In this document: positions 10,069 through 31,215 of the stretch, piece after piece | How positions within the stretch are numbered: position 1 is the stretch's first letter | Layout of the letters: each line of letters begins with the position of its first letter | Origin: Phycisphaerales bacterium | Lineage (GTDB): Bacteria > Planctomycetota > Phycisphaerae > Phycisphaerales > UBA1924 | Assembly: GCA_965228265.1 (NCBI GenBank) | Contig: OZ245804.1 | Location: 207,298-271,297 of the forward strand | Length of the DNA stretch: 64,000 nt | Reading direction: 5' to 3' | The notes under the pieces: model-generated | What the model was told of the DNA's origin: nothing | What the model saw: the letters and a program-made list of their open reading frames with translations, nothing else | Database searches by the model: none | Position numbers and translations under genes: made by a program

Positions 10069-10116
10069 CACATCTTCCCGGTTGTGAGTCACTACAAGTC
10101 CGTGTTCGTATACATT

Positions 10117-13100
10117 ATGACGATGACCGGCTCTGAGAAAAGACAACCGGAGGTGCCGCAAGGTCTCTATGACCATCTCGTCGACACCGCTCTCAAGGCG
10201 ACACTTGACGGCATGGGTGACTCTCGACTTGCGGAACTCGCCGAGGTCGATGCGGAGGACGCCCACGCCGCGATCGCCCAGTACCTCGAACGGCTTCTAG
10301 CGAAATCCATGTCCACCCTCCGCGGGCGAGAGGCCGCCGATCGCCAGCGTCGGCTTGTCGATCGGGTGATCGAGGCCCTCGTTGCCGAACTCGGCGACGA
10401 CTGGGCCGACCGCTTCAACCTCACCAGCCCGCTGCGTCGCCTGCTCGCCGTCCACGCCGAGCCCCGGGACACGGGCGCGTCGCGCCCCGACACGCCGCTC
10501 GCACGCTCGGCCCTGCTCACCGGCACCCGGCTGGACCCATCCCTCGCCTCGCAGCTCTCCAAGGAGTTTGCGGCGGCCGACCGAGTCGACATCCTCTGCT
10601 CGTTCATCAAATGGAGCGGCATCCGCCTGCTGATGGACGCGCTTCGCGAGCTCACCGCCACGCCCCACCCGGACGGCCCTCGACTCCGCGTCATCTCCAC
10701 GAGCTACATGGGCGCGACCGACTCCAAAGCAATCGAGGCCCTGCGTGATCTGCCCAACACTGAGGTCAAGGTGTCCTACGACACCGAGCGCACGCGGCTC
10801 CACGCCAAGGCCTATCTCGTCCATCGCGCGACCGGTTTCGGCAGCGCCTACATCGGCTCGGCCAACGTCTCCCGGGCCGCACTCTCTGAAGGTCTTGAAT
10901 GGACGAGCAAGATCAGCCAGTACGAGCTCCCGCACCTCTGGCAGAAGATCGTTGCGACCTTTGACTCGTATTGGAACGATGACGAGTTCGAGCATTTTGA
11001 TGGTGACGCGGCGCCGAGACTTCGCGAGGCGATCAGCCGCGAGCGAACGCGCGGCTCCGTCGAGATCGGCGAGCTACCGACCTTCGACCTTCGTCCCTAT
11101 GCGTTCCAACAGGAGATCCTCGACGCGATGGCGGCCGAGCGAGAGGTGCAAGACAAGCACCGTCACCTCGTCGTGGCTGCGACCGGCACCGGCAAAACGA
11201 TGATCGCGGCATTCGATTACAAGCGATGGTCAGGTACTCGCAAGCCGTCGTTGCTCTTCATCGCCCACCGGGAGGAGATCCTTCGCCAAGCACTCGGCAC
11301 CTACCGGGCCGTGCTCCGCGATCAGAACTTTGGCGATGTACTCGTTGGCGGCACGGCCCCCGGGCAACAAGACCACCTGTTCTGCTCGATCCAGAGCTAC
11401 AACAGCCGGGGGCTGCACAAGCTCCCATCGGATCTGTTCGACTACATCGTGGTTGATGAGTTTCATCACGCCGCGGCGCCGAGCTATCGGCGTCTGCTCG
11501 ATACCGCCCAGCCGAAGATACTTTTGGGCCTGACCGCGACGCCTGAACGAGCCGACGGTCTCGACGTACTCACACCGTTTGGCGGTGAACCGACCGCCGA
11601 GGTGCGATTGCCCGATGCGATCAGCCGGCGCCTGCTCTGTCCGTTCCAGTACTTCGGCGTTGCCGACAGCGTCGACCTCGACGGCCTGACGTGGCAGCGC
11701 GGCGGCTACCGCATCGAAGACCTCGACGCAGTCTACACCGGTAACGACGTTCGCGCCGGCCTCGTGCTCGACAAGGTGCACGAAAACCTGCTCGACCCGC
11801 TCCACGCCCGCGGCCTGGGCTTCTGCGTCAGCGTCGCCCACGCGAACTTCATGGCCCGCTTCTTCACTGAGCACGGCATCCCCGCGATCGCGCTCTCCGC
11901 CGAGACGCCCGCCGAAGAACGTCGCGCGGCCAAGGAACGTCTCATCCGCCGCGAGATCAACTTCATTTTCGTCGTCGATCTCTACAACGAAGGCGTCGAC
12001 ATTCCCGAGGTCGACACGGTCTTGTTCCTCCGCCCGACGGAGAGCCTGACCGTCTATCTCCAGCAGCTCGGACGTGGCCTCCGCCTGCATGACGAGAAGG
12101 AGTGCCTGACTGTCCTCGACTTCATCGGGGCTCAGCACCGGCAGTTCCGTTTTGCGTCTCGGTTCCGAGCACTGAGCACCGACCCCACTGGCCGCCTCGA
12201 ACGCGAGATCGAGTCCGGCTTCCCGCACCTCCCTGCCGGCTGCTTCATCCGGTTGGAGCGAGTTGCTCAACAACGCGTGCTGGAGAACGTGCGCCAATCA
12301 CTGACGCTGCGGCGCCCGCAGATGGTCGGTGACATACGCGAGCTCGGCCGTCACCTCGGCCGCGCTCCGAGCATCCGTGAGACGCTCGAGTACCTCGACA
12401 CCACGCTCGATGAGCTTCTCAAGCGAGGCCTCTGGAGCCGGCTTCTGAGCGATGCGGGCCTCACCGACGCACCCACCGGCGAAGACGAAGACCGGCTCGC
12501 GAAAGGCATTCGCCGTCTGGTCCACATCGACGACCCGCAACAACTCCGCTTTCTCCTCGCACACCTCGACGGCCAAGCGCCGCAAGACCCCCTCGCCGAA
12601 CGACGCCGAGCCATTTTGCATGTGACCCTGTGGGGTGCCGACGGCGTCTCCATGTCACCCGATGAAGCCGATGCCCGCCTTCGGGAGAATCCGAATGCGC
12701 TCGATGATCTCCGGGCCGTGCTCGATTACCGACTCCACCACACCCGCACCCGCCCGAGGGACCTGCTCCCCGACCTCGCCGGCCCGCTCGCCCTCCATGC
12801 CGAGTACACCCGAGACGAGGCCCTCATCGGCCTCGGCCACTGGGACTTGGATCGTCGCCCGGATTTTCGCGAGGGCGTCCTCCACATCCCGGACCGTAAG
12901 ATCGACGCCTTCTTTGTGACGCTGCACAAGACAGAGGAGGCGTACTCGCCGACGACGATGTACGAGGACTACGCGATCAGCGACCAGCTCTTCCATTGGC
13001 AGTCGCAGAGCACCACCTCGGCCGACTCGAAGACCGGGCAGAGGTACATCCACCACCGGGCGCAAGGCTACACCCCGCTGCTGTTCGTCCGCGAGCGCAA

Positions 13101-13245
13101 ATCACTCCCCGGCGGCCTCGCCGCCCCATACGCCTTCCTCGGCCCAGCTGACTACGTGTCCCACGAGGGCAGCCGCCCGGTGAGCATCATCTGGCGCCTG
13201 CGGACGCGGATGCCGACGCGGATTGCCCGGGTTGCGGTGGGATAG
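10117..13245 (+). CDS. PLD-family nuclease / SF2 (DEAH) helicase / DUF3427-like C-terminal domain fusion protein
   Basis: HKD motif RLHAKAYLVHRATGFGSAYIGSANVS. Helicase motif I VVAATGTGKT. Motif II IVVDEFHH. Motif III LGLTATPER. Motif VI LQQLGRGLR. About 300-aa conserved C-terminal domain. Confidence 0.8.
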   Translation: MTMTGSEKRQPEVPQGLYDHLVDTALKATLDGMGDSRLAELAEVDAEDAHAAIAQYLERLLAKSMSTLRGREAADRQRRLVDRVIEALVAELGDDWADRFNLTSPLRRLLAVHAEPRDTGASRPDTPLARSALLTGTRLDPSLASQLSKEFAAADRVDILCSFIKWSGIRLLMDALRELTATPHPDGPRLRVISTSYMGATDSKAIEALRDLPNTEVKVSYDTERTRLHAKAYLVHRATGFGSAYIGSANVSRAALSEGLEWTSKISQYELPHLWQKIVATFDSYWNDDEFEHFDGDAAPRLREAISRERTRGSVEIGELPTFDLRPYAFQQEILDAMAAEREVQDKHRHLVVAATGTGKTMIAAFDYKRWSGTRKPSLLFIAHREEILRQALGTYRAVLRDQNFGDVLVGGTAPGQQDHLFCSIQSYNSRGLHKLPSDLFDYIVVDEFHHAAAPSYRRLLDTAQPKILLGLTATPERADGLDVLTPFGGEPTAEVRLPDAISRRLLCPFQYFGVADSVDLDGLTWQRGGYRIEDLDAVYTGNDVRAGLVLDKVHENLLDPLHARGLGFCVSVAHANFMARFFTEHGIPAIALSAETPAEERRAAKERLIRREINFIFVVDLYNEGVDIPEVDTVLFLRPTESLTVYLQQLGRGLRLHDEKECLTVLDFIGAQHRQFRFASRFRALSTDPTGRLEREIESGFPHLPAGCFIRLERVAQQRVLENVRQSLTLRRPQMVGDIRELGRHLGRAPSIRETLEYLDTTLDELLKRGLWSRLLSDAGLTDAPTGEDEDRLAKGIRRLVHIDDPQQLRFLLAHLDGQAPQDPLAERRRAILHVTLWGADGVSMSPDEADARLRENPNALDDLRAVLDYRLHHTRTRPRDLLPDLAGPLALHAEYTRDEALIGLGHWDLDRRPDFREGVLHIPDRKIDAFFVTLHKTEEAYSPTTMYEDYAISDQLFHWQSQSTTSADSKTGQRYIHHRAQGYTPLLFVRERKSLPGGLAAPYAFLGPADYVSHEGSRPVSIIWRLRTRMPTRIARVAVG

Positions 13246-13350
13246 CGGGCGAGTGGATCCAAGCCATCTGAATCTCTGACATCGTGTCCACACTGAACGG
13301 TAATCTGGTGAACCCAACCGGTCGTATCATTTGCTAGAGAAAGGTACCGC

Positions 13351-15117
13351 ATGGCGAATCTAACTGGCTGTCCTGAAATTCGCTACGAAGCTCTTCGTCG
13401 CGTTAGGGAGACCGCTCTGGTCGATTTTGGTAGTCTCTTCACACCGGATCGGAAGATTTGGACAGCCCGCAATCTCCAACGGCACCACGAGATGGTCGTT
13501 CAGCGATTCGACGAAGGCGAGGGGAACTTCCTCAGCAAGTACCAGCACCAACTTGGCGGCGCGGACGACGACACGATCCAGCTTGCTGCCGAGCTCGTAT
13601 ACGTCCAGCAGATTTTCACCACGGTCACCGGTCCCAAGAAGAAGATAGCGAATGTTCAAGAGATCTTGACATGGTGCGATCGAGCCGTCGACGTCCCGGA
13701 GTGGGCGATCGACGGCGCTGCCGGACATGCTGGAGACCAGAGCTTCAACCAGCACCGACCGTGGCACCTGGCATGGATCAACGAGTATCTTCTCCACTGG
13801 CATGAGCTGCCCGAGTCGCTTAGGACGGAGATCCTTGCCGATCCGTGGACATTTCGAGAGAACGTGTTCGGACACAAGACCTCCTTGAAAGCATTCCAAC
13901 CGATGCGGGAGGCATGGCTCTACATCGCGTTTCCCGACACATTTGAGAACATCTCGTCCCGCAAGGACAAGAAGGCGATCAGAAGCGGCTTCGAGAGTCT
14001 CTTGCCCAACGGCGCGACCGACAACATCGATCGCGATCTCCTAGCTATTCGCGAAGCGCTCGGCAAGGACGCAGAGCCGGGCTTCCACTTCTATCGGAAG
14101 CCATACCTACAGCAGTGGAAGGAGCCCAAGGAGCCGAAGCCGAAGAAGCAGGCTGGTGCAGGCGCGGGGAATACCGTGACACCGAGCCCCGGTCTGTCCA
14201 TGAGCAATGCACCAGCACTGATCGAGTCGCTTGATGATCTCGCAGTATCACTGATGCTGGAACCCACCGACACTCTGTCGCGATGGGCGGCGCTGCTCGT
14301 AGAGAAGGGCCAGGTCATACTCCAAGGACCGCCCGGCACCGGGAAGACCTTCCTCGCTCGCAAGATGGCGGAGTCGCTCGCGGGTTCCGCGGATCGCGTG
14401 ACGGTCGTCCAGTTCCATCCCTCGTATGCATACGAGGACTTCGTTGAGGGCTTCCGCCCTGCCGGTCCCAATCACTTCGAAGTTAAGGACGGTCCGCTCA
14501 AGCGGCTGGCGACCCGAGCGGCGGCCGATCCCGGCGCACGCTTTGTACTGATTATTGACGAGATCAACCGAGGCAACATCGCAAAGGTGTTCGGCGAGCT
14601 GCTCTACCTACTCGAGTACCGCGATGAGGCCATCACCCTGCAGTATTCCGAGGCCCCATTCCGTCTGCCGCGGAATCTCTTGATCATCGGGACGATGAAC
14701 ACCGCCGATAGATCGATCGCTTTGCTCGACATGGCACTGCGGCGGCGGTTCCGGTTCCTCGACCTTGTCCCCGGCGAGGCGCCGATCGATGGGTTGCTTG
14801 AGAGGTTCTTGGAATCGAACGCTCCGGACATGGTATATCTCGCCGGCATGATCGATGTCGTCAACGAGATTGTGGGCGACCGGCACGTGATGGTTGGACC
14901 GAGCCATTTTATCACCGATGACCCGCGAGCCCTTACCGAGGAGTGGGCGAAGCAGATCTGGGAGCATTCGGTCATTCCCGCTTTGGCGGACCGCTTCTTC
15001 AACAACCCCAGCGAGATGAGTCAGTTCCTCTACGACACCGTTAGAGACCAGGTCACCTCCGACAATATTGTGGCCGACCAATCGGAGGACGAGGATGCGT
15101 CGGCTGACGCTGACTGA
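13351..15117 (+). CDS. mcrB: McrB-like AAA+ GTPase (5-methylcytosine restriction system B) with non-canonical N-terminal domain
   Basis: Walker A ILQGPPGTGKTF. McrB-specific region FVLIIDEINRGNIAKVFGELLYLLEYR...LLIIGTMNTADRSIALLDMALRRRFRF. Confidence 0.85.
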   Translation: MANLTGCPEIRYEALRRVRETALVDFGSLFTPDRKIWTARNLQRHHEMVVQRFDEGEGNFLSKYQHQLGGADDDTIQLAAELVYVQQIFTTVTGPKKKIANVQEILTWCDRAVDVPEWAIDGAAGHAGDQSFNQHRPWHLAWINEYLLHWHELPESLRTEILADPWTFRENVFGHKTSLKAFQPMREAWLYIAFPDTFENISSRKDKKAIRSGFESLLPNGATDNIDRDLLAIREALGKDAEPGFHFYRKPYLQQWKEPKEPKPKKQAGAGAGNTVTPSPGLSMSNAPALIESLDDLAVSLMLEPTDTLSRWAALLVEKGQVILQGPPGTGKTFLARKMAESLAGSADRVTVVQFHPSYAYEDFVEGFRPAGPNHFEVKDGPLKRLATRAAADPGARFVLIIDEINRGNIAKVFGELLYLLEYRDEAITLQYSEAPFRLPRNLLIIGTMNTADRSIALLDMALRRRFRFLDLVPGEAPIDGLLERFLESNAPDMVYLAGMIDVVNEIVGDRHVMVGPSHFITDDPRALTEEWAKQIWEHSVIPALADRFFNNPSEMSQFLYDTVRDQVTSDNIVADQSEDEDASADAD

Positions 15118-16318
15118 GTACAGCACGACGAGCGGAGTCGCTCTCGATGCTGCCGAGCTCGCGATGCTCCGCGGTGTTCATCCAACACTGCGGATCGAGC
15201 CCGCGATAGGCCTGCCGGGTCGATTCGACTTGACCCCCAATCAGCACATCGGTCTAGTTCAACTGCCCACTATCGCCATCGAGATTCAACCCAAGATGCC
15301 GATTTCGTCCGTTGTCTTCCTCGTCTCTTACGCAGCTGACCGCATGAGCTGGTCACGTATGCAGACGGCGTGGCAGGATGACGCGACGCTTGTCGATCTG
15401 ATCGCGACCGTGCTGTGTCGATCCATCGAACGCTCGACCCGAGAAGGACTTCTCGCGGGATATCGCTCCCACGAGGAGTCGTTGTCGGCGCCACGGGGCC
15501 GGATTCGGTTCCCCGAGCACATCAGCAAGCGACTCGGACAAGCTCCGCCAATCGAGATCGAGCATGACCTGTTCACGACGGACATCATCGAAAATCGAGT
15601 CTTGCTCAGCGCCCTCTCACAGCTGCGCCGCCTCCCGTTGCGATCGATGACGATCAACCACGAGATCGGACGCGCTGCGCGGCTCTTTGGCGGCGTGGAA
15701 CTCGTTCACTATCCGAAACACAGCATTCCAGATCCAGTCATCACGCAGCTCAATCGGCACTATGAACCGGCGCTTCGAATCGCTCAGCTCGTGCTCCGGT
15801 CGTCTTCCGTCGACGTCGGGTCGGGAGCCCGGCGAGCGGACGCGTTTCTCGTCGACATGAATGCCGTCTTCGAACTGTTTCTCCGCACGGCGTTACGAGA
15901 GTCGCTCCGGTGTCCCCTGAGCGCATTCCCTGATCGGCCGCCACGACTTCGCTTGGATGCCGCGGAGTGCATCCCGCTCAAGCCGGACCTTTGCTTGATC
16001 GCGAGCGGGAGAATCGTCTGGGTTGGTGATGCAAAGTACAAGCGCCTCAGCCCGGCCGGCTATCAGAACGCCGACGTGTACCAGATGCTCGCGTATCTGA
16101 CAGCCACCGGGTTGCCATCGGGTATGTTGATCTACGCTGCCGACGCAGGTTTGGCTTCGACGACGCACGTTATCGAGGGCGCGACTCGAGAGGTACGGAT
16201 ACGCACCCTCGATCTAAGAAAGCCGCCGTCTGGCATCCTGCGGGAGGTCGCGCTGATCGCAGACGAGATCCAGTCGGGGCAGAACTCGCCCGAAGTAAGC
16301 GAGCACTCTGTTGACTAG
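15095..16318 (+). CDS. mcrC: McrC-like PD-(D/E)xK nuclease subunit
   Basis: Overlaps the mcrB 3' end. C-terminal nuclease motif DLCLIASGRIVWVGDAKYKRL. Confidence 0.75.
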   Translation: MRRLTLTEYSTTSGVALDAAELAMLRGVHPTLRIEPAIGLPGRFDLTPNQHIGLVQLPTIAIEIQPKMPISSVVFLVSYAADRMSWSRMQTAWQDDATLVDLIATVLCRSIERSTREGLLAGYRSHEESLSAPRGRIRFPEHISKRLGQAPPIEIEHDLFTTDIIENRVLLSALSQLRRLPLRSMTINHEIGRAARLFGGVELVHYPKHSIPDPVITQLNRHYEPALRIAQLVLRSSSVDVGSGARRADAFLVDMNAVFELFLRTALRESLRCPLSAFPDRPPRLRLDAAECIPLKPDLCLIASGRIVWVGDAKYKRLSPAGYQNADVYQMLAYLTATGLPSGMLIYAADAGLASTTHVIEGATREVRIRTLDLRKPPSGILREVALIADEIQSGQNSPEVSEHSVD

Positions 16319-16836: not shown

Positions 16837-17484
16837 ATGGCGACTAATCCGAACACAGTTGCTGACGGCAAGGCATTCATGACCACACGAACAGCTCAAC
16901 TCGACCAGATCGCCGAGGTCTTCAGCGGTCACTATGAGAAGGGTGCCGCCAAGGACGAGCCGTCCGGCACACACCGCCTCGTGTTCATCGGGTCCATCGA
17001 TCCGGAGCCCGGCCATCGCTTGCTCCGCGACCGTTGCCCGAGATTCACACCGGTCAAGGGCCCCGGCGATGCCGTGCTCCGGCGCGGCGACCTCATTATC
17101 CCCGCCCGGGGCGAGCGGCTCGACATCGCGATGATCGATGAGCTGCCGGACAGCCGGCCTCTCGTGGCCGCGTCGTTCCTTCATGTCATCCGCGTGAACA
17201 CCGACGACGCCAATCCCGGATATCTCGCCTGGTGGCTCAACCAGCCGCAGGCCCAGGCTGCCCTCCGTGACCGCGTCCGCGGCACAAAGATCCCGTTCCT
17301 TTCTTTGAAGGCAACGCGTGCGTTGGAGGTCCACCTTCCGCCGCTCGACATCCAGCGTCGCATCTCTGAGTTCCACACCCTCGCCGTCCGTGAATCCCAG
17401 ATCATGACCGACCTGCGTGATACGAGATCACAACTGAACAACGCCCTCGCACTCCAGGTCGCCACAGGAGCCGTCCACGCATGA
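16837..17484 (+). CDS. hsdS: Type I restriction-modification specificity subunit, half-size (single target-recognition domain)
   Basis: N-terminal LDQIAEVFSGHYEKG and the HsdS conserved coiled region HLPPLDIQRRISEFHTLAVRESQI. Stop overlaps the hsdM start (ATGA). Confidence 0.6.
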   Translation: MATNPNTVADGKAFMTTRTAQLDQIAEVFSGHYEKGAAKDEPSGTHRLVFIGSIDPEPGHRLLRDRCPRFTPVKGPGDAVLRRGDLIIPARGERLDIAMIDELPDSRPLVAASFLHVIRVNTDDANPGYLAWWLNQPQAQAALRDRVRGTKIPFLSLKATRALEVHLPPLDIQRRISEFHTLAVRESQIMTDLRDTRSQLNNALALQVATGAVHA

Positions 17485-18992
17485 GCCAGACCAAGCACAC
17501 CACCAAGCAGATCGCCGACGCCGTCTGGGCCGCGTGCGACACTTTCCGCGGGGCCGTCGACCCGGCCAACTACAAGAACTACGCCCTCACGATGCTCTTC
17601 CTGAAGTACCTGTCCGACATGATGGTCGATCGGCGGGAGGAGCTCAGCAAGAAGTACAAGGGCGACGAGACCCGCGTCGAGCGTGCCCTCCGCAACGAGC
17701 GGTTCGTCCTCCCCGAGGGCTCCGACTTCCGCGACCTCTACATCAAGCGTGACGCCGACAACATCGGCGAGCTGATCAACATCGCCCTCGTCAACCTTGA
17801 GGACAACAACAAATCCAAGCTGGAGAATGTCTTCAGCAACATCGACTTCAACAGCGAGGCTGAGCTCGGCGAGACGCGCGACCGCAACGCCCGCCTAAAG
17901 AACTTGCTCGAAGACTTCAACAAGATCGACTGCCGCCCGTCGCACCTCGCCGGTCGCGATACGATCGGCGACGCATACGAACGGCTCATCGGCTGGTTCG
18001 CCGCGGGTGCCGGCAAGAAGGCCGGCGAGTTCTACACCCCGCCCGAGGTCTCCGAGCTGCTCGCCAAGCTGCTCCGGCCCGAGGAAGGTGCCCGCATCCT
18101 CGACCCCGCCTGCGGCTCGGGCTCGCTGCTCATCAAGGTCGCCCGCGAGGTCGGCTCGGACAACTTCGCAGTGTTCGGCCAGGAGTCCAACGGCTCCACC
18201 TGGGCCCTCTGCAAGCAGAACATGTTCCTGCACCAGATGGACCAGGCCCGCATCGAGCGGTGCGATACGCTCCGCTCGCCCAAGCTGCTCGACAACGACG
18301 AACTCATGCGGTTCGACATCGTCACCGCCAATCCCCCGTTCAGCCTCGACAAGTGGGGACAGGAAGACGCCGAGAAGGACCGCTTCAACCGCTTCTGGCG
18401 GGGCGTGCCGCCCAAGAGCCGCGGCGACTACGCCTTCATCAGCCACATGATCGAGACCGCCCTGGAGGGGCACGGCCGCGTCGGCGTCATCGTGCCTCAC
18501 GGCGTGCTCTTCCGCTCGGGGGCCGAGGGCCGCATCCGCCGCAAGCTCATCGAAGACAACCTGCTCGAACTTGTCGTCGGCTTGCCGCCCAACCTCTTCT
18601 ACGGCACCGGAATCCCCGCCGCGATCCTCATCTTCGACAAGTCGCGGAAGGGCGACACCAAGCGGGACACGGTGCTCTTCATCGACGCCAGCCGCGAGTT
18701 CGAGCAGGGCACCAACCAGAACCGCCTGACTGAGGACAACATCAAGAAGATCCTCGCGACCTACAAGGCGTACGAGAGCGTCGAGAAATACGCCCACGCC
18801 GCGACGGCCGAGGAGCTCGCCGAGAACGACTTCAACCTGAACATCCCGCGGTACGTCGACACCTTCGAGGACGAGGAGGAGATCGATATCGAGGAGACGC
18901 AGGCCGAGATCGATCGGCTTGAAATCGAGCTCGCCGAGGTCCGCGGCAAGATGGCGGCAACGCTGAAGGAGCTCGGCGTTGCGACATCCTGA
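17481..18992 (+). CDS. hsdM: Type I R-M N6-adenine DNA methyltransferase subunit
   Basis: HsdM N-domain, SAM-binding ILDPACGSGSLL, catalytic IVTANPPFS. Confidence 0.9.
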   Translation: MSQTKHTTKQIADAVWAACDTFRGAVDPANYKNYALTMLFLKYLSDMMVDRREELSKKYKGDETRVERALRNERFVLPEGSDFRDLYIKRDADNIGELINIALVNLEDNNKSKLENVFSNIDFNSEAELGETRDRNARLKNLLEDFNKIDCRPSHLAGRDTIGDAYERLIGWFAAGAGKKAGEFYTPPEVSELLAKLLRPEEGARILDPACGSGSLLIKVAREVGSDNFAVFGQESNGSTWALCKQNMFLHQMDQARIERCDTLRSPKLLDNDELMRFDIVTANPPFSLDKWGQEDAEKDRFNRFWRGVPPKSRGDYAFISHMIETALEGHGRVGVIVPHGVLFRSGAEGRIRRKLIEDNLLELVVGLPPNLFYGTGIPAAILIFDKSRKGDTKRDTVLFIDASREFEQGTNQNRLTEDNIKKILATYKAYESVEKYAHAATAEELAENDFNLNIPRYVDTFEDEEEIDIEETQAEIDRLEIELAEVRGKMAATLKELGVATS

Positions 18993-19002
18993 ATGGCCCA
19001 TC

Positions 19003-20220
19003 ATGAAGCTTGGCAAGCTGTGCAAGACTCAGTACGGGACATCAGCTGCTACAACATCTGACGGTGAACAGCACGTTCTCGGGATGTCGAATATCGGGGA
19101 CGGCCGTGTAGACCTCGCGGGCCTGTCGCGTCTGTCCTTGTCTGAACGGGAGGCGAGCACGCTTCGTCTCCACAAGTACGATGTGCTTTTCAACCGCACT
19201 AATAGCAGGGCTCTGGTTGGCAAAGTCGGCATCCTTATGGAGGAGCCGGAGACGCCAACAGTCTTTGCTTCATACCTCGTCCGATTGATCCCGAACGAAC
19301 GGGTGAGGCCGCAGTGGCTTGCCTATGCGATGAGCTCCGGGATCACCGGGCGATCGATCGTTCGCCTGATCACACTCGGGGTGAGCCAGGCGAACATCAA
19401 TCCGTCCGAGCTGTTGAAGTGGGTGGCTATTCCGGTGCCTCCGATCGAGGTTCAGGACCACTTGATCGACCGATTCGGCGATTTCGACAACGCTGCTGAC
19501 AAGCTGCGATATCATATTGAGTTCGCCAAGCATCGCCTCCACGGCCTGATGCAACAGCTCCTGACCGGCCGCCGCCGCCTGCCGGCGTTCGCGGGCGAGG
19601 CGTGGGAGGAGGTGCCATTCGGCGATCTCCTTGATCAGGTCGACCGATATGTCGAGTGGTCCGACGACGAGGTGTACCGACTCGTCTCCGTGCGACGCCG
19701 GTCGGGTGGCTTCTTCGACCGGGAACGCAAGCCCGGGAGCGAGATTCTCACCAAGACACTGAAGACCACGCGGACAGGTGACTTTGTGATCGCGAAGATG
19801 CAGGTCCTTCACGGTGCGATGACAGTCACGCCGCCGGAGTTCGACGGCTCGCATGTGTCCGACTCCTATCTCACGTTCGTGCCCAAGGACCAGGCCCGGC
19901 TCCACATGCCGTTCCTCGGCTGGCTCTCGAAGACACCTCGCATGTACTACAAGGCCTTCAGGTCGAGCTACGGCGTCGCGATCGAGAAGATGACCTTCCA
20001 TCTGCCCTGGTTCATGCAGGAAACCATCTCGCTGCCCACGAGCATCGACGAGCAGCGTGCCATCGCCGACATCCTCGACACCGCCCAACGCGAGATCGAG
20101 CTGCTCGAACAGCTCCGCGAGCAGATCCAGCTCCAGAAGCGTGGGCTGATGCAGAAGCTGCTGACCGGCGAGATCCGCGTGCCCGGGGACGAGCCTGTCG
20201 CTGAGGAGGTGTCGACATGA
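19003..20220 (+). CDS. hsdS: Type I R-M specificity subunit (two TRDs)
   Basis: MKLGKLCKTQYG start. Two TRDs separated by the conserved LLTGRRRLP region. C-terminal conserved LPTSIDEQRAIADILDTAQREIELLEQL. Confidence 0.85.
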   Translation: MKLGKLCKTQYGTSAATTSDGEQHVLGMSNIGDGRVDLAGLSRLSLSEREASTLRLHKYDVLFNRTNSRALVGKVGILMEEPETPTVFASYLVRLIPNERVRPQWLAYAMSSGITGRSIVRLITLGVSQANINPSELLKWVAIPVPPIEVQDHLIDRFGDFDNAADKLRYHIEFAKHRLHGLMQQLLTGRRRLPAFAGEAWEEVPFGDLLDQVDRYVEWSDDEVYRLVSVRRRSGGFFDRERKPGSEILTKTLKTTRTGDFVIAKMQVLHGAMTVTPPEFDGSHVSDSYLTFVPKDQARLHMPFLGWLSKTPRMYYKAFRSSYGVAIEKMTFHLPWFMQETISLPTSIDEQRAIADILDTAQREIELLEQLREQIQLQKRGLMQKLLTGEIRVPGDEPVAEEVST

Positions 20221-21287
20221 CGACACCAGAGCTGCTCAACTTCAATGACGCCATCTCGCGTTGCATCAAAGCCCCCCATGTGTTGTTGGGCAATGGTTTC
20301 AGCGTGGCGTGCCGGCCCAACCTGTTCAATTACAGCCGCCTCCTGGATCAGGCGAACCTCTCCGGCCGCCCGCAGGCACGTGAGGCGTTCGATCGTCTCG
20401 GTACGACGGACTTCGAGATTGTCATGAACGGCCTCTCCCGGGCCGCTGAGCTTGCAGACGTGTACGGCACCTCTGATGGCTCACTCGCCGACCGATTCCG
20501 CGAGGATGCCGAAGCCCTGAAAGAGGTCCTCGTTCAGACGATTGCCGGGACGCACCCTGACCTGCCCAAGGCGATTACCGATGATGAGTGTGCCGCGGCG
20601 AAGCGATTCCTGTCGCACTTCAGAGGCCGCCGCGACCAGAAGATCTACCTCTTGAACTACGACCTGCTGACCTATTGGGCTCTGATGCGGTCTGATGTTG
20701 AGCCGCAGATTGAGTTCGACGATGGGTTCCGGCAGCCGGAGGACGGACCCGAAGACTGGGTCGTGTGGGAATCGAACCGCCACATCCAGAACCTGTTCTA
20801 CCTTCACGGCGGTTTGCACATCTACCAGTCCGGCCCCGAGATCCGGAAGTTCACATGGTGCAACACCGGTCTGCCGCTGATGGATCAGATCCGGGCTGCT
20901 CTCGACGAGAACCGGTTTCCGCTCTATGTCGCTGAGGGCACCTGGCAGGACAAGATGACGCGGATCCGCCGCAGCGATTTCCTCGGCCGCGGTCGAAGGA
21001 GTTTCCGTCAGATCGGCGGCTCGCTGTTCATCTACGGAATGTCACTGAGCGACAACGACGACCACATCCTGCGAGCGATCGCGAGTGGCAGTGTCGAGCA
21101 GCTCTTCGTGTCCGTGTATGGGGGCATGGAGACCGATGCGAATCGCGAGCTCTGTGAGCGAGCCCTTGCCCTTACCGAGAGGCGGCAAGGAATCGGCGGG
21201 CGGAACCCTAAGCCGCTCAATGTCCAGTTCTTCGACGCCGAGTCGGCGAACGTGTGGGCGGCAGGTGCACCAGGGGAGAAGGCGTGA
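20217..21287 (+). CDS. SIR2-like (DUF4917-type) protein embedded in hsd operon
   Basis: N-terminal HVLLGNGFSVA (GAGxS-like) and KIYLLNYDLLTYWAL (TNYDxLLE-like) motifs characteristic of SIR2_2/ThsA-type NADase domains. ATGA overlap with hsdS. Confidence 0.6.
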   Translation: MTTPELLNFNDAISRCIKAPHVLLGNGFSVACRPNLFNYSRLLDQANLSGRPQAREAFDRLGTTDFEIVMNGLSRAAELADVYGTSDGSLADRFREDAEALKEVLVQTIAGTHPDLPKAITDDECAAAKRFLSHFRGRRDQKIYLLNYDLLTYWALMRSDVEPQIEFDDGFRQPEDGPEDWVVWESNRHIQNLFYLHGGLHIYQSGPEIRKFTWCNTGLPLMDQIRAALDENRFPLYVAEGTWQDKMTRIRRSDFLGRGRRSFRQIGGSLFIYGMSLSDNDDHILRAIASGSVEQLFVSVYGGMETDANRELCERALALTERRQGIGGRNPKPLNVQFFDAESANVWAAGAPGEKA

Positions 21288-22996
21288 TGACGATGGCAAG
21301 CAACGCGACCGGCCCGACACTCACTCGTCCCGTCGTGATCCGACCGGGACGACCCAACTTGCGGACGACCTTCCAGCTTTCGGCGGCACTGCTCCCGGAT
21401 GAGGGGCAGGCTGTTGACGAACTGTTCGACGCCGCGAGGTCGACAGCTCTGAAGTGGCTGCAGGACAAGTTCCCCGAGCGGCTTCCTGCTCCGGCCCTCG
21501 CCGGCGAGTCGTTCGACATCGACCTGCACGGCCAGAGCATGGCGGCGGTCGAGCTGTCCTCCGAGGGGCTGTGGACGGTCCGGCTCGTGCAGCCCGACGC
21601 CCCCTTTGGCGACCGGAAGGCGGTGCCGGGACGTTCGTGGACCACCGAGATCGCCTTCGCGAAGGACACCGGGCAGGTCCGCTTCGGTATCCGCGTGCTC
21701 TGTGCGTCCCTTGAGTTTGCGACCGAGCCGATCGCACTCACCCGACCCCGCATTGTGGTTGAGCTGTCCAATCGGTTCCGCATGCAGATCTCGGCACCGA
21801 TCTCCGGCCAGGCGTGGGAGCCGCAGGATGACGCGGACCTCGCTCGGCTGCGTGACCTGCTGATCGACCCGCGTCGCGAGCTGCCCGTCTATCTCCTGTC
21901 GGTGCCCGACAAGAACCAGCTCGGCATCAACCCGGCTCCGTATCTGCTGAACCATGAGCGACTCGCTCACAAGTGCCAGGGCATCGCCCATGTGGTGACG
22001 ATGCCGTGGAGCCTGGGGTACGCGTGGACCGATATGGTCGGCAAGCAGTGGTCGGCGTTCCTCGGTGCGGTCCGGACATACCGCCCGGGTTTGAACTTTG
22101 ACGAGGACAGCCCGTCCGACCATCCGCGTGCCTTTGCCGAACGCATCCTCGGCTTCTACTACAACGGGCAAACGATGGAAAGGGCCTTCGAGGACTTCCT
22201 CATCGACAAGGCCTACGAGCACGCGGCGACCAAGCGGATGGAGTGGGGATCGCTGATCTTCCTCGCCGACGCCCGAACGCGAGCCGCGGCCCTCGCGCGC
22301 GAGAGCACGACCGATGAGGGGGAGTGGCGTGAGCTCTACGAGACTGAGATCAAGTCGCTCAAAGAGAAGATCAAAGAGCTGGAAGGTGAATCTGAGGGTT
22401 ATCTCGATGTCGCGACTGCAGCCGAGCAGGAGCGAGACCAGGCGACTGAAGAAAACCGGAAGCTCCGCACACAGATCGATTCGCTCCGCACGGCACTCCA
22501 GGCAAAGACCGGCGAGAACCCGGACACAACGATTCAGATGCCCGCCTCCTATGACGAACTGCCTGAGTGGGTCGAGGCAAACCTGGCCGGCCGTCTCACG
22601 CTGCACAACAGAGCGGTGAGTCGGGGCCTGAAGAAGCCAGAGTTCGAGGATGTGGAGCAGGTGGCCCGCGTGCTGCTGCTCTTGGCCGGAGAGTACCGCA
22701 CGATGCGAATGGGTCACGATGGCGGCAAAGATGCCTTCGACCGGAAAGTTACAGAGATGTCTCTCCGGTACGACGGGTCCATTTCCGAAGAGCGAGCTGG
22801 ACAAGAGGGTGAGACGTACTTTGTGAAGTGGCCGTATCCCACTTCAAGTCGGCGATTCCTCAAGTGGCACATTCGATCCGGCGGAAACACTCGCGATCCC
22901 AAGCGGTGCCTTGCGGTGTACTTCTTCTGGGATGACGACACCCAGCAGGTCGTCGTGGGCTGGCTCCCGAGCCACTTGAACAACAGGCTGACCTGA
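21287..22996 (+). CDS. Uncharacterised ~570-aa protein with central coiled coil, partner of SIR2-like gene
   Basis: No recognisable P-loop or nuclease motif by eye. Coiled-coil segment EWRELYETEIKSLKEKIKELEGESEGYLDVATAAEQERDQATEENRKLRTQIDSLRTALQAK. Start overlaps the SIR2-like stop and its stop overlaps the hsdR start. Confidence 0.5.
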   Translation: MTMASNATGPTLTRPVVIRPGRPNLRTTFQLSAALLPDEGQAVDELFDAARSTALKWLQDKFPERLPAPALAGESFDIDLHGQSMAAVELSSEGLWTVRLVQPDAPFGDRKAVPGRSWTTEIAFAKDTGQVRFGIRVLCASLEFATEPIALTRPRIVVELSNRFRMQISAPISGQAWEPQDDADLARLRDLLIDPRRELPVYLLSVPDKNQLGINPAPYLLNHERLAHKCQGIAHVVTMPWSLGYAWTDMVGKQWSAFLGAVRTYRPGLNFDEDSPSDHPRAFAERILGFYYNGQTMERAFEDFLIDKAYEHAATKRMEWGSLIFLADARTRAAALARESTTDEGEWRELYETEIKSLKEKIKELEGESEGYLDVATAAEQERDQATEENRKLRTQIDSLRTALQAKTGENPDTTIQMPASYDELPEWVEANLAGRLTLHNRAVSRGLKKPEFEDVEQVARVLLLLAGEYRTMRMGHDGGKDAFDRKVTEMSLRYDGSISEERAGQEGETYFVKWPYPTSSRRFLKWHIRSGGNTRDPKRCLAVYFFWDDDTQQVVVGWLPSHLNNRLT

Positions 22997-25900
22997 TGGA
23001 CATGAATGAGCGAATCACGCCGCGTTCTGACGAGGACGCGACCAGTCAGCTTCCCGCACTCAAGGTGCTGATCAACCTCGGCTGGAAGTACCTGACGCAG
23101 GAGGATGCTTTGTCGCTGCGAGGCGGGAGAACCTCCGAGGTCTTACTCTACGGGGTCCTCGAAGACTGGCTCCGAGAGAACAACCGCATCGAGTATCGCG
23201 GCGAGTCAGTGCCCTTCACCGAGGCCAACATCGCGTCGGCAATCGCCACGCTCCGCGACGAACAAGACGACGGCCTCGTCCGCACAAATGAGAAGCTCTA
23301 CGACCATCTTCTGCTCGGCAAGTCGCTCAAGCAAACGGTGCTCGGAGACAGCAAGAGCTTCCAGCTTAAATACATCGACTGGGATGCTCCCGAGAACAAC
23401 GTCTATCACGTGACGGAGGAGTTTGCCGTCGACCGCTCAGGATCGGATAAGACGTACCGCCCGGACTTGGTGCTCTTTGTCAATGGCATCCCTTTGGGCG
23501 TCATCGAGTGCAAGCGGAGCGATCTCGGGCCCAGCAAACCCGCCCCCGTGATTCAGGCCATCGAACAGCACGTCCGCAATCAGAAGCCCGATGGGATTCC
23601 GAAGCTCTATTGGTACTCACAGGTTATTGGGGCACTCTCGCCTGCCGGTGCTCCTTCTGGAGAGGTAGTCACGGACGAGTACGAGTCCGAAGCCAAGCTC
23701 CCCGCCCGGTACGCGACCACAGGTACACCGAAGAAGTTCTGGGCAAGTTGGCGTGAGTCAGCGATCGTCAACGGTGAGTATGAGGTGGCCGACGCCTCTG
23801 TCGATGCGGCGGTCAACGATCGGCTCGGCCAAGCCGATGTTGAGCGACTACTTAAGAACCGAACGGCTTCTGTCAAGGCCGACTTTCACGCGGCAGAAGA
23901 CCAGGGACGCCTCGCGACCGAGCAGGACCGGCTCCTGTGCCGCGTGTTTTCTCCGGAACGCTTGCTTCGATTGTCGCACCGTTACATCGTGTTTGATGCT
24001 GGTGTGAAGAAGATCGCTCGATACCAGCAGTATTTCTGTGTCGAGAAGATCCGCCGTCGCATTCGTGACCTTGGACCGGATGGGATGCGTCGGGGAGGTG
24101 TCGTCTGGCACACCCAGGGCTCAGGGAAGAGCCTCACGATGGTCATGCTCGCGAAGGCCATCGCAATGGACCGGCACCGGGGCGACCTTCTCGGCGGTGA
24201 GGGGGGTGAGCGAATCGTCTTGGTCACCGACCGAGTCGATCTTGATGACCAGATCTACAAGACATTCAAGCACTGCGGCCTGAAGGCTGTTCAGGCGAAT
24301 AAAGGAAGCGATCTGGTCCGGCTTCTCAAGGACACTGAAGCCAAGATCGCGACCACGGTGATTAACAAGTTCGATGCCGCACTCGGCAAAGAACAGATCA
24401 GCGTGGACGATCCCAATGTGATCGTGCTGGTTGACGAGGGGCACAGGACCCAGTTCGGCATTCGTCACTCAACGATGAGACGCGTGCTTCCGAACGCGTG
24501 CTACATCGGTTTCACCGGTACGCCCGTCCGGCGGAAAGACCGGAGCACTGTTGAGAAGTTTGGCGGCATGATCGACTCGTACACAATCAAGCAAGCTGAG
24601 CAGGACCGGGCGGTGCTGCCGATCGTCTACGAGGGAAGGCACGTCATCAAGGACGTCAACCAGGCCGAGATCGACGATTGGTTCGACAAGTACACCGAGG
24701 GCCTCTCCGATGAGCAGAAGCAGGACCTGCGTCGGAAGGTGAGTACCGAAGACCAGATCATGCAGGCCGACCCGGTCATTCGACGGATTGCCCGCGATGT
24801 CTCGGAGCACTACCGCAACTTCCTGCAGGGGACCGGCCTCAAGGCCCAGCTCGTCGCACCATCGAAGGCTGCTGCGATCCGCTACAAGCACTGGCTCGAC
24901 GACCTGGGCGAAGTTCGTTCCGAGGTCTTGATCTCCCCGCCGGACGACCGAGAGGGCGACGAGGACATCTACAAGCCAAACCGTGAGCTCGTCAATCGAT
25001 TTTGGGTCGGCGTGCTGCAGAGATTCGGGACAGATGTTCAGTACGCCAAGCAACTCATCAACTCCTTCAAGCACGGCGACACCGCTGATCCAGAGAGCGA
25101 TGCTCCCGAGATCATGATCGTTGTGGACAAGCTCTTGACCGGCTTTGACGCCCCAGAGAACACGGTGCTCTATTTGGGCCGAAAGCTCAGGGAGCACAAT
25201 CTCCTGCAGGCCATCGCTCGTGTGAACCGGTTGGCGACCGGCAAAGAGCGTGGATACGTCTTGGACTATCGAGGCGTCCTCGAAGAGCTCGACGATGCGT
25301 TCGCCATGTATTCCCGAGATCCTGATGACCCGGAATCGGCTGACCTTGGCTTCGTTGAATCCCTCGCGAGTATCGACAAGGCATGGGATGACCTCCCTCA
25401 GCGACACTCTCTATTGTGGGACACGTTCAAGGATCTTGCCGGCAGCCGCGACCGGGAGGCATACGAGCAGCACCTTGCTGACGAAGCCTTGCGAATCCGG
25501 TTCTACGAACGCTACGCCGCCTTCGCTCGGGTGCTCGATGTCGCGTTGTCATCCCACACATTCCTCAACGCGACACCCAATGCGACAGTCGCGAAGTATC
25601 GCGAAGACCTGAAGTTCTTTGGAGAACTGCGGCGTGCGGTGCGGATCCGCTACGCTGAAGTCGTCGACTTCTCTGAGTATGAGCCGAAGATTCGGAAGCT
25701 GCTCGATCAGTACATCAGTGCGAGCGGTGTCGAGAGCATCACCGGAAAGATCGACCTCTACGATCGGGACCAGCGAGCCGCCGCCCTTGAAGCCGCAGGC
25801 TCCGCATCATCGAAGGCTGAAACAATCGCCAGCAACGTGAGCCGGGTACTGGAAGAGCGTGTCCGCGAGGAAGACCCAGCAACATATCGCAGGCTGTCTG

Positions 25901-26298
25901 CAATGCTCCGGGACATCATGGAGCGGATGCGTACTGGTTGGCTGGCTGCTGCTGAAGCTCTTGCCCAGGTCGAGGATATCGAAAGCGAGGTCATTCGTCC
26001 GACAGCCGACGACGTGCCCGAGTCACTAAGAGACTCGCGGCTCGGTGCCATCATCTTCCGGAATATCAAAGAAGAGCTCGGCGACGCTAGTGAGCAGGCT
26101 GCAGTGTCGATTGAATCAATCATCCGAAACCGGGCGATTGTTGGGTGGCGGAATAATGTCGACTGTCAGAAGTCGATGCGTCAGGCAATCGATGATTTCC
26201 TCTTTGAGCTTGGTGATGCCGTCGGTGCTACTTGGACTCTCGAAACAATCGACAAAGTAGTTGACATGTCTATTGAGCGGGCGAGGGCTGTTTTGTGA
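22996..26298 (+). CDS. hsdR: Type I restriction enzyme R (helicase-endonuclease) subunit
   Basis: Motif I HTQGSGKSLTM, motif II VLVDEGHRTQ, motif III GFTGTP, motif VI LQAIARVNR. 1100 aa. Confidence 0.9.
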   Translation: MDMNERITPRSDEDATSQLPALKVLINLGWKYLTQEDALSLRGGRTSEVLLYGVLEDWLRENNRIEYRGESVPFTEANIASAIATLRDEQDDGLVRTNEKLYDHLLLGKSLKQTVLGDSKSFQLKYIDWDAPENNVYHVTEEFAVDRSGSDKTYRPDLVLFVNGIPLGVIECKRSDLGPSKPAPVIQAIEQHVRNQKPDGIPKLYWYSQVIGALSPAGAPSGEVVTDEYESEAKLPARYATTGTPKKFWASWRESAIVNGEYEVADASVDAAVNDRLGQADVERLLKNRTASVKADFHAAEDQGRLATEQDRLLCRVFSPERLLRLSHRYIVFDAGVKKIARYQQYFCVEKIRRRIRDLGPDGMRRGGVVWHTQGSGKSLTMVMLAKAIAMDRHRGDLLGGEGGERIVLVTDRVDLDDQIYKTFKHCGLKAVQANKGSDLVRLLKDTEAKIATTVINKFDAALGKEQISVDDPNVIVLVDEGHRTQFGIRHSTMRRVLPNACYIGFTGTPVRRKDRSTVEKFGGMIDSYTIKQAEQDRAVLPIVYEGRHVIKDVNQAEIDDWFDKYTEGLSDEQKQDLRRKVSTEDQIMQADPVIRRIARDVSEHYRNFLQGTGLKAQLVAPSKAAAIRYKHWLDDLGEVRSEVLISPPDDREGDEDIYKPNRELVNRFWVGVLQRFGTDVQYAKQLINSFKHGDTADPESDAPEIMIVVDKLLTGFDAPENTVLYLGRKLREHNLLQAIARVNRLATGKERGYVLDYRGVLEELDDAFAMYSRDPDDPESADLGFVESLASIDKAWDDLPQRHSLLWDTFKDLAGSRDREAYEQHLADEALRIRFYERYAAFARVLDVALSSHTFLNATPNATVAKYREDLKFFGELRRAVRIRYAEVVDFSEYEPKIRKLLDQYISASGVESITGKIDLYDRDQRAAALEAAGSASSKAETIASNVSRVLEERVREEDPATYRRLSAMLRDIMERMRTGWLAAAEALAQVEDIESEVIRPTADDVPESLRDSRLGAIIFRNIKEELGDASEQAAVSIESIIRNRAIVGWRNNVDCQKSMRQAIDDFLFELGDAVGATWTLETIDKVVDMSIERARAVL

Positions 26299-27026
26299 CT
26301 GGAGAGCCCAAGCAACGAAGCATCATGGTTGGCTCGGAGAAACTTCCGTACGTGGTTGTTCGGACATCCGGTAACTCAGCTCGACTCGTCGTTGCTCCCT
26401 CTGGAGCCGTCGAGGCCAGGGTGCCGGACGGCCGCTCCGACAAATCTATCGAACAGTTCGTCCGCAGCAAGGCACGGTGGATCATCCGGCAGCAAGACTA
26501 CTTCGCGTCATTTAGGCCACGTGATCCACGGCGTCAGTATGTCAGTGGCGAGACCATTCGGTACCTGGGGCGTCAGTACCGACTGAAGGTCAGCCCGTCG
26601 GAACAGCAATCCGCGAAGTTGCTCGGAAAGCACCTTGTCGTCGGGATCCAAGCGGGCAGCGACAGTGGTGAAGTACGACGCATTGTCCTCGATTGGTATC
26701 GCGTGCGTGCGGCCGAGGTGTTTCGCCAGCAAGCAGACAACCTGCACGAGAGGCTGGCGGCACACGGCGTTGGTGAGGCACAGATCAGCGTGCGTTGGAT
26801 GACACGACGCTGGGGCAGTTGCACACCGACAAATCAGATCATTTTGAATCCGCTTCTCGTGATCAATCCAATTGACTGCGTCGCATATGTCGTCGCCCAC
26901 GAGTTGTGTCACCTCAAGGTGCCAAACCATGGGGACGCGTTCTACCAACTGCTCTCGACAGTCATGCCAGACTGGCGGAAGCGACGCGAACGACTTGGGC
27001 GGTCAGGGGCTCACCTTGACCTTTGA
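26295..27026 (+). CDS. YgjP-like M48-family zinc metallopeptidase (DUF45)
   Basis: HELCHLKVPNHGDAFYQLL (HExxH). GTGA overlap with the hsdR stop. Usual accessory of type I R-M loci. Confidence 0.8.
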   Translation: MTGEPKQRSIMVGSEKLPYVVVRTSGNSARLVVAPSGAVEARVPDGRSDKSIEQFVRSKARWIIRQQDYFASFRPRDPRRQYVSGETIRYLGRQYRLKVSPSEQQSAKLLGKHLVVGIQAGSDSGEVRRIVLDWYRVRAAEVFRQQADNLHERLAAHGVGEAQISVRWMTRRWGSCTPTNQIILNPLLVINPIDCVAYVVAHELCHLKVPNHGDAFYQLLSTVMPDWRKRRERLGRSGAHLDL

Positions 27027-28367: not shown

Positions 28368-29387
28368 TCAAGTGAACACCGAGACAGTCGTCAGATCACC
28401 CTCACCGACTTTCTGGTGAACCCGGTGGTGCCCGAATGATGCGATCACCTGAGCATTCGTCATTGCGTGGTCGCTGAGTGAACCAGTGAGGAACGCCCCA
28501 CCGCCGGCAAGGGCGAGCGGCAACATCAGCTGGTCGGCCAGATGCTCCCAGACGGGGACGCCAGCGGCGAGGTATTTCTGGACCTCCTTCGCCGCGTTAG
28601 ACGCGACTCGCTCGGCGGAAACGCCGCGCTCCCCGAAGCCCGTGAATACCTCGGTGATGTCCTCCCGCTGAACGATGAGGCTCAGGGTGTTGCCGGGGCC
28701 GGCGCTCTCCTGAACCTGCTCGATCTGGAGACAGTCATCCTCCCAGCCGAGCATCGTGTTGATCGTGTTCAGCTCGCGCTTGGCGATTGCTCCATCGAGA
28801 GCGGCGATCGTGGCGACTGCTCGGCGCGCGACAACCGGTCTCACCTCGACGAGTTCAATCGGTGACAGGCGCTCGGCCGGTTCAATGTCGACGCGGATCT
28901 GCCCGCCGCCACCGGGGTAGAAGCCGTGGCGGTCGAGATGGATGCGGACCCTCGGCCCCATCCGTTCCAAGAGCGGAAGAAACGCATGAGTAAGATAGGT
29001 AACACTTGGCGCAAACAAGTTGTGTGTCCCGCCTGTGATGGTGAGCGTTGAGGGTTCCTTTGCAAGCATGAGCGCCGGAAGCACGGTCTGTAGGACGAGC
29101 GTTGTGCTTCCCGCTGTGCCGATCGCAAAGCTGTACACCCCACCGCGAACGGGACCAGGTCTGAACTCAAGGGCAATCGATCCGATCTCGGCGCCGATAG
29201 CGCTGGCGCCGCACACCTCTGCCGCAGCGAGCGTGGAGGTCAGATGCTGCCGAAGCAAGCCCGGCTTTGGCCGATTGACGCGGATGTTCTCGATGCGAAA
29301 GGGTTGGCCCGTGACCATGGACAGGGCGAGAGCAGTCCGCAGGATCTGCCCGCCGCCCTCGCCCTGGCTGCCGTCGATCTTAATCAT
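28368..29387 (-). CDS. rtcA: RNA 3'-terminal phosphate cyclase
   Basis: MIKIDGSQGEGGGQILRTALALSMVTGQPFRIENIR...HLTST. 339 aa. Confidence 0.9.
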   Translation of the reverse strand: MIKIDGSQGEGGGQILRTALALSMVTGQPFRIENIRVNRPKPGLLRQHLTSTLAAAEVCGASAIGAEIGSIALEFRPGPVRGGVYSFAIGTAGSTTLVLQTVLPALMLAKEPSTLTITGGTHNLFAPSVTYLTHAFLPLLERMGPRVRIHLDRHGFYPGGGGQIRVDIEPAERLSPIELVEVRPVVARRAVATIAALDGAIAKRELNTINTMLGWEDDCLQIEQVQESAGPGNTLSLIVQREDITEVFTGFGERGVSAERVASNAAKEVQKYLAAGVPVWEHLADQLMLPLALAGGGAFLTGSLSDHAMTNAQVIASFGHHRVHQKVGEGDLTTVSVFT

Positions 29388-30877: not shown

Positions 30878-30935
30878 ATTGATCTCCGTACAGAGTGGAG
30901 TGCTACAGGAATGGAAATTGATGATACTGAACAAG

Positions 30936-31010
30936 GGTGAACGAAGGGGCTCGAACTCTCAACCCCCGGGCTCACAACCCGGTGCTCTGCCCAATTGAGC
31001 TACGCTCACC
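30936..31010 (-). tRNA. tRNA-His (anticodon GTG) with encoded G-1
   Basis: Folded by hand: G-1, acceptor GTGAGCG/CGTTCAC, D arm GCTCAATTGGGCAGAGC, anticodon arm CCGGG-TTGTGAG-CCCGG, T loop TTCGAGC, discriminator C. Confidence 0.8.
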
Positions 31011-31022
31011 ATCGCAACGAAA

Positions 31023-31098
31023 CAGCCTCGGCAGGACTCGAACCTGCGACCCCCGCATTCGTAGTGCGGCGCTCTGATTCCGACTGAGCTACGAGGCT
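31023..31098 (-). tRNA. tRNA-Arg (anticodon ACG)
   Basis: Acceptor AGCCTCG/CGAGGCT, anticodon arm CCGCA-CTACGAA-TGCGG, T arm GCAGG-TTCGAGT-CCTGC. Confidence 0.8.
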
Positions 31099-31115
31099 TC
31101 GAACTTGTTTGTCAA

Positions 31116-31189: not shown

Positions 31190-31215
31190 TCGATTGCTTT
31201 CGTTCACGAATCGAA

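Follow-up and report, generated by a model that had tools for sequence, protein, structure and literature searches.

DUF4917 and HEC-07 genes, probably two stacked single-gene defence cassettes, at a variable cargo site of a planctomycete type I restriction-modification operon

Layout of the Operon

The present analysis concerns a type I restriction-modification (R-M) operon of a Phycisphaerales bacterium (assembly GCA_965228265.1, contig OZ245804.1, positions 207,298 to 271,297), in which two open reading frames (ORFs) stand between hsdS and hsdR. The window, that is, the whole stretch of DNA that was analysed, has 64,000 nucleotides, and coordinates refer to it unless another locus is named; other loci carry L numbers. 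ORF1 belongs to the DUF4917/PDC-S21 family and ORF2 to the HEC-07 family. As set out below, pairing of the two genes is not obligate, and they probably represent two separate defence cassettes stacked in a slot that can house other cargo as well. The operon is composed of the following genes, given with their profile matches and E-values.

16837-17484, plus strand: short single-domain HsdS-like gene (215 residues) at the operon head; PADLOC Specificity_I, 5.5e-17, and a weak Pfam Methylase_S match
17481-18992, plus strand: hsdM, type I R-M methyltransferase subunit; Pfam N6_Mtase, 7.2e-102, and HsdM_N; TIGR00497, 2e-84, above cut-off
18979-20220, plus strand: hsdS with two target-recognition domains; PADLOC Specificity_I, 3.9e-43 (residues 5-401), and Pfam Methylase_S
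20217-21287, plus strand: ORF1, the first cassette, DUF4917/PDC-S21, 356 residues; Pfam and PADLOC
21287-22996, plus strand: ORF2, the second cassette, HEC-07 family, 569 residues from the ATG at 21287; PADLOC
22996-26298, plus strand: hsdR, restriction/translocase subunit; Pfam HSDR_N, SWI2_SNF2 and T1R_D3-like; TIGR00348, 3e-126, above cut-off
26295-27026, plus strand: YgjP-like metallopeptidase gene overlapping the hsdR stop; Pfam YgjP-like, 3.7e-55

All genes from the half-hsdS-like gene through the YgjP-like gene are co-directional, and the host R-M set is complete, with hsdM, hsdS and hsdR intact according to Pfam, PADLOC and TIGRFAM profiles. The stop of hsdS is joined to the start of ORF1 in an ATGA (20217-20220), the stop of ORF1 to the ATG of ORF2 in a TGATG (21285-21289), and the stop of ORF2 to the start of hsdR in a second TGATG (22994-22998). 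The initial annotation, made from the sequence by eye, had described two ORFs with overlapping stop and start codons at these three junctions, and its coordinates are exactly right. A Shine-Dalgarno-like GAGGAGG lies 5' of the ORF1 start. ORF1 and ORF2 are almost certainly co-transcribed with the intact type I R-M operon.

The two outermost genes are characteristic companions of this operon type. The 215-residue HsdS-like gene, which overlaps the start of hsdM, has a counterpart in nearly all related operons (27-94% identity), being found 5' of hsdM in L004, L005, L010, L011, L161-L163, L166 and L168. The YgjP-like (SprT/WLM-type) gene is the last gene in every related locus that extends far enough, and stands 3' of hsdR in L004, L005, L010, L011, L032, L139, L159, L161-L163, L166 and L168.

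The DUF4917 Protein

ORF1 matches Pfam DUF4917 (PF16263) over the entire profile (positions 1-311 of 311) with an E-value of 1.6e-69 and a score of 235 bits, the cut-off being 28. It also matches, over its full length, the PADLOC model PDLC04960 (E = 2.3e-111) of PDC-S21, which is a single-gene candidate entry in that database. Among 45 homologues with 46-92% identity, the GNGFS motif at residues 25-29, Y148, D149 and the pair H197-G198 are invariant, and N147 is conserved in at least 90%.

The AlphaFold2 model of ORF1 (predicted local distance difference test, pLDDT, 87.4; predicted template modelling score, pTM, 0.87) was compared with the PDB using Foldseek. The best matches are the SIR2 subunits of SIR2-HerA/Nezha (8sub, 8j4u and 8w9l), with E-values from 1.8e-10, for 8sub, to 2.8e-7 and a template modelling (TM) score of about 0.5. 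Human FAM118B (9.5e-4) and the classical sirtuins (6e-3 for SIRT2, or weaker) follow at a distance, and the sequence identity of ORF1 to solved SIR2 structures is 14-16%. The model supports a SIR2-like, Rossmann-type fold for ORF1. At the sequence level, Pfam SIR2_2 gives a sub-threshold match in 37 of the 45 family members, falling in ORF1 on residues 146-200, which is the segment from NYD to HG, and Pfam AbiH a weak match in 9 of the 45. A PDB profile search with the DUF4917 alignment returned spurious matches only; the SIR2 relationship is detectable through the predicted fold, not through such a search. The initial annotation had proposed a SIR2-like protein from its motifs, a proposal supported by the fold match, the recurring SIR2_2 signal and the conservation of GNGFS, NYD and HG. 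The NYD and HG motifs would be the equivalents of the SIR2 catalytic residues. By analogy with defensive SIR2 proteins, ORF1 is a putative NAD+-consuming effector.

The HEC-07 Protein

ORF2 matches the PADLOC HEC-07 model PDLC04161 with an E-value of 2.6e-125, residues 17-569 aligning with positions 13-553 of the 553 in the profile, and the three further HEC-07 models in PADLOC match as well, making all four. No Pfam domain was found in ORF2 above threshold, and an exact-match search with ORF2 yielded no recorded contig. HEC-07 is the single-gene "Hma-embedded candidate 07" (Payne, Hughes, Fineran, Jackson, bioRxiv 10.1101/2024.01.29.577857), of which the tested representative is WP_033943166.1 from P. 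aeruginosa NCTC13717, where an Hma system is the host. In the same preprint, the expression host for the HEC systems was E. coli MG1655 deltaRM and plaquing was reduced by seven of the nine; because only HEC-01 and HEC-09 failed, HEC-07 protected on its own. The view of ORF2 as an unknown sensor partner is therefore abandoned, since the protein is a full-length member of a family reported to be protective alone.

The preprint divides HEC-07 proteins into three domains, of which the N-terminal one is AdoMetDC-like (3C6K), the next is thioredoxin-like but lacks CxxC (3VFI), and the C-terminal one is RelE-like (4LTT) and carries a conserved H543 (bioRxiv 10.1101/2024.01.29.577857). The AlphaFold2 model of ORF2 (pLDDT 87.5) begins with an AdoMetDC/TBP-like domain, continues with a thioredoxin-like one devoid of CxxC and a long helix, and ends in the C-terminal domain; the predicted folds of the first two domains match 3c6k and 3vfi, the same PDB entries as in the preprint. 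The single helix spans 65 residues (344-408) and agrees with the central coiled coil that had been read from the sequence. At the C-terminus, H563 is invariant in 51 sequences and lies six residues from the end in an LPxHL motif. This motif corresponds to the LPxHL at H543 of the 549-residue homologues P0098-P0101 (27-29% identity to ORF2, 92% coverage), the comparison being with these homologues and not with the C-terminus of the tested protein.

The RelE-like RNase fold of the C-terminus is a reported one that rests on the preprint; our analysis gave it no independent confirmation. The initial annotation had seen no nuclease motif in ORF2, which holds by eye and in sequence searches, but in the preprint a structure comparison led to the assignment of a RelE-like RNase domain to the C-terminus of the family. 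By analogy with the family, ORF2 may be an RNase.

Co-occurrence of the Two Genes

Two surveys bear on whether the genes belong together. A genome-wide scan for HEC-07 gave 80 loci from many phyla, of which 66 extend 1.1 kb or more upstream and were counted, DUF4917 being sought anywhere in the fetched locus by tblastn and profile hidden Markov model. A metagenome scan for DUF4917 gave a further 80 loci, and here the count took in the 30 that reach 1.7 kb or more downstream. A DUF4917 gene is present in only one of the 66 HEC-07 loci (L005), and HEC-07 adjoins DUF4917 in none of the 30; in one DUF4917 locus, L108, a HEC-07 gene lies 7 kb upstream. Constant co-occurrence of the two genes is contradicted by these counts.

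Each gene is also met in other settings. HEC-07 often lies between HmaA (9 of 61 upstream neighbours) and HmaB (6 of 71 downstream), or has HsdR downstream (6 of 71). Around DUF4917, HsdS accounts for 9 of the 108 neighbours scanned. Members of the ORF1 family occur in a type I R-M context in the window, L005, L136, L139, L159, L162, L166 and L168. Among the proteins that cluster with ORF1 at 90% identity, one is directly followed by HsdR, as judged from consecutive accession numbers. A near-identical trio with consecutive accessions, namely a DUF4917 family protein, a hypothetical protein and HsdR, has been deposited for "Phycisphaerales bacterium JB058".

ORF1 and ORF2 are not an obligate pair but are only occasionally found together, at a site open to other cargo as well. 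Obligate pairing is rejected because, within the same backbone, close relatives of either gene are found in the absence of the other, as is seen in the comparison that follows.

Variable Cargo at the hsdS-hsdR Junction

The related operons were divided into close ones, in which hsdM is 90-96% and hsdR 81-96% identical to those of the window, and more distant ones of the same type. The contents of the slot between hsdS and hsdR are as follows.

L161, close: HEC-07 alone
L162, close: DUF4917 and HEC-07
L163, close: two unannotated genes and HEC-07
L166 and L167, close: PDC-S54 and DUF4917
L011, more distant: PDC-S54 and HEC-07
L004 and L010, more distant: HEC-07 alone
L139 and L168, more distant: DUF4917 alone
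L159, more distant, slot at 9995-14661: four genes before hsdR, namely DUF4917, PycTM, PycC (E = 3.3e-153) and a Schlafen/AlbA_2 gene with HATPase_c_4

The junction is a hotspot with combinatorial cargo and not the seat of a conserved two-gene system. The combinatorial character follows from PDC-S54, whose partner is HEC-07 in L011 but DUF4917 in L166. The PDC-S54 proteins (L011:8667-9977 and L166:6688-8004; about 437 residues) have no Pfam domain and match the PADLOC entry with E-values of about 1e-125.

The two unannotated genes of L163, where hsdM and hsdR are both 96% identical to those of the window, lie at 6196-7173 (325 residues) and 7173-7796 (207 residues). Neither protein has a Pfam match, and their sole PADLOC match is a marginal one of the 207-residue protein to 2TM-effector (E = 4.5e-4). 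It is possible that they constitute uncatalogued defence cargo. A HEPN_RiboL-PSP gene of L164 (431-1054) runs into the start of a HEC-07 gene, which shares 73% identity with ORF2, and no hsdR follows. This gene, which likewise encodes 207 residues, and the 207-residue gene of L163, both upstream of HEC-07, were compared and found to be unrelated.

In L032 (4754-8748), a 789-residue PLD-like protein and a 573-residue protein without matches are encoded between hsdM and hsdS, with HEC-07 in the hsdS-hsdR slot, so that operons of this type may have a second site of insertion. Serine recombinase genes are located near close hsd operons in L161 (1568-3004), L163 (14732-16669) and L166 (243-2171). 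That these recombinases flank several of the close operons suggests that the whole operon resides on a mobile island.

Proposed Function and Alternatives

The reading that we favour, at a probability of roughly 0.78, is that the slot holds two independent, stacked single-gene defence cassettes; the specific biochemical activities of ORF1 and ORF2 are held with less confidence than this. Translational coupling to the hsd genes would tie the expression of both cassettes to that of the restriction enzyme. ORF1 would most likely act as a stand-alone SIR2-like enzyme which, upon an infection trigger, consumes NAD+ and aborts the infection, by analogy with the SIR2 proteins of SIR2-HerA, ThsA, DSR and AbiH. 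ORF2 would be an autonomous sensor-effector, in which the AdoMetDC/TBP-like and thioredoxin-like domains presumably sense infection and the C-terminal domain, with its invariant His near the C-terminus, presumably cleaves RNA and thereby arrests translation. If the C-terminus is truly RelE-like, ribosome-dependent cleavage of mRNA would be expected. The NADase and RNase activities, the triggers and any abortive-infection outcome are inferred for the two proteins. The idea of a hybrid restriction and abortive-infection locus is retained as a reasonable reading of genes in one operon, but not in its original form of a SIR2 and unknown-sensor module.

Several points weigh against this picture. 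ORF2 is only 29% identical by BLASTP to the tested HEC-07 protein (E = 2e-37, the comparison being with its first 399 residues), and no experiments on PDC-S21 were found in the literature. The only characterised DUF4917 protein, SliP of C. jejuni, is reported to be a secreted deacetylase and not an NADase. Moreover, the pair of DUF4917 and HEC-07 does recur, namely in the window, in a near-identical metagenome-assembled genome, in L162 (92% and 77% identity) and also in L005, a distant operon (45% and 49%).

This last point, along with the TGATG overlap by which the two genes adjoin, is what speaks for one obligate two-gene system composed of the DUF4917 protein and the 569-residue protein, in which ORF2 would be the sensor of a SIR2-like, NAD+-depleting effector. 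The survey counts and the close relatives that lack the partner in the same operon backbone argue against such a system, as do the reported protection by HEC-07 as a single gene and the listing of both families as single-gene entries in PADLOC; we regard it as very improbable. There is also little likelihood that the recurring pair reflects a real functional link, such as a synergy of NAD+ depletion with RNA cleavage, or a role as guards of the type I enzyme in the manner of PrrC.

PrrC is kept latent by its host R-M enzyme until a phage inhibitor acts. By analogy, ORF1 and/or ORF2 could be latent on the Hsd complex until a phage anti-restriction protein puts the restriction enzyme out of action, which would free or activate them. 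Such a guard would fit the translational coupling to the hsd genes, the recurrence of DUF4917 directly 3' of hsdS (the nine neighbours mentioned above) and the labelling of PrrC as almost exclusively type I R-M-embedded in the preprint. However, most homologues of both genes lie away from type I R-M genes, HEC-07 is active in E. coli without R-M, and it also occurs in Hma systems, whose subunits differ, which leaves the guard model improbable.

For ORF1 by itself, one may ask whether the protein is a deacylase or ADP-ribosyltransferase of the classical sirtuin type, which would modify a target protein with no depletion of NAD+. The canonical sirtuin deacetylase activity reported for SliP and the presence of SIRT2 and Hst2 among the weaker fold matches are in line with this. 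The best folds, by at least 6 orders of magnitude in E-value, are nevertheless those of the defensive NADase-type SIR2 of SIR2-HerA, followed by FAM118B; the weak Pfam matches are to SIR2_2 and AbiH and not to the classical SIR2 family, and the genomic context is a defence island. We consider a sirtuin-type activity unlikely, if slightly less so than the guard.

The Surrounding Island

The type I R-M operon is part of a larger defence island, to which the following genes on its 5' side also belong.

10048-13245, plus strand: type IV methyl-directed restriction enzyme (PLD, helicase and DUF3427); PADLOC mREase_IV, 3.2e-237
13351-15117 and 15068-16318, plus strand: McrB and McrC; Pfam AAA_5 and McrBC, 3e-53

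On the minus strand, an ORF with a NERD domain (8992-10266) shares about 220 nucleotides with the gene of the type IV restriction enzyme at the predicted TTG start of the latter, and probably the start codon of one of the two has been called too early. About 1.3 kb downstream of the operon, rtcA (28368-29387) and rtcB (29380-30975) are encoded on the minus strand, followed by four tRNA genes (His, Arg, Pro and Leu), the region as a whole spanning 28368-31289. That an RNA-repair ligase is encoded beside an island whose genes include a putative RNase effector may be a coincidence.

Implications

The main value of the analysis is corrective, in that an apparent new module of a SIR2 protein and a sensor turns out to be two catalogued single-gene cassettes. 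For DUF4917/PDC-S21 the defence role is itself a catalogued prediction. In addition, the related operons furnish a clean natural series of mix-and-match cargo, with near-identical hsdM and hsdR flanking at least four cargo sets at one junction; such slots are therefore worth searching for further defence genes, and the two unannotated genes of L163 are immediate candidates. Should a functional link between the cassettes, or a guard role, turn out to be true, the locus would be an integrated three-layer system instead of a simple stack.

Comparison with Known Systems

The closest counterpart of ORF2 is HEC-07 itself, with which it shares the full-length profile, the first two folds, the missing CxxC, the C-terminal LPxHL His and the embedding in a multi-gene restriction-type system. 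It differs in its host, which is a planctomycete type I R-M system and not an Hma system of Pseudomonas, and phage protection has been reported for the P. aeruginosa representative only. ORF1, for its part, matches the DUF4917 and PDC-S21 models over its full length, and nothing sets it apart from the family. The 145 PDC candidates go back to genes nested within BREX, DISARM and type I R-M systems (bioRxiv 10.1101/2024.01.29.577857), so that the type I R-M context in which ORF1 stands is also a source context of these candidates.

With the defensive SIR2 NADases (SIR2-HerA/Nezha, ThsA, DSR1/DSR2 and AbiH), ORF1 has in common the SIR2 fold and the GxG, N-x-D and H-G motifs. It has no fused or adjacent HerA, ThsB/TIR, SLOG, pAgo or large DSR-type sensor. 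In being a single gene it resembles lactococcal AbiH, a SIR2-like gene of abortive infection that also stands alone. Thoeris, SIR2-HerA and SIR2-pAgo were considered and rejected, as PADLOC and Pfam gave no match to a ThsB TIR, HerA, pAgo or SLOG in ORF1, ORF2 or the flanking genes; the earlier statement that ORF2 is not a HerA, ThsB or pAgo partner agrees with this.

PrrC was likewise rejected as an identification, for neither ORF has an ATPase or a PrrC/anticodon-nuclease match, and the embedded position alone is shared. PrrC is an ATPase-anticodon nuclease that is functionally coupled to its R-M host. Its genes have been labelled as lying, almost without exception, inside type I R-M systems (bioRxiv 10.1101/2024.01.29.577857). 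TgvAB is a two-protein, GmrSD-like type IV system, also type I R-M-embedded, on VPI-2 of V. cholerae. Both PrrC, at the EcoprrI locus, and TgvAB are effector genes inside a type I R-M operon, as ORF1 and ORF2 are, although the protein families are unrelated. The initial annotation had proposed a previously undescribed effector module; both families are in fact present in PADLOC-DB v2 as single-gene entries, and with PrrC, the PDC candidates and TgvAB the nesting of defence genes in type I R-M operons is already an established arrangement, of which the present locus is a further example.

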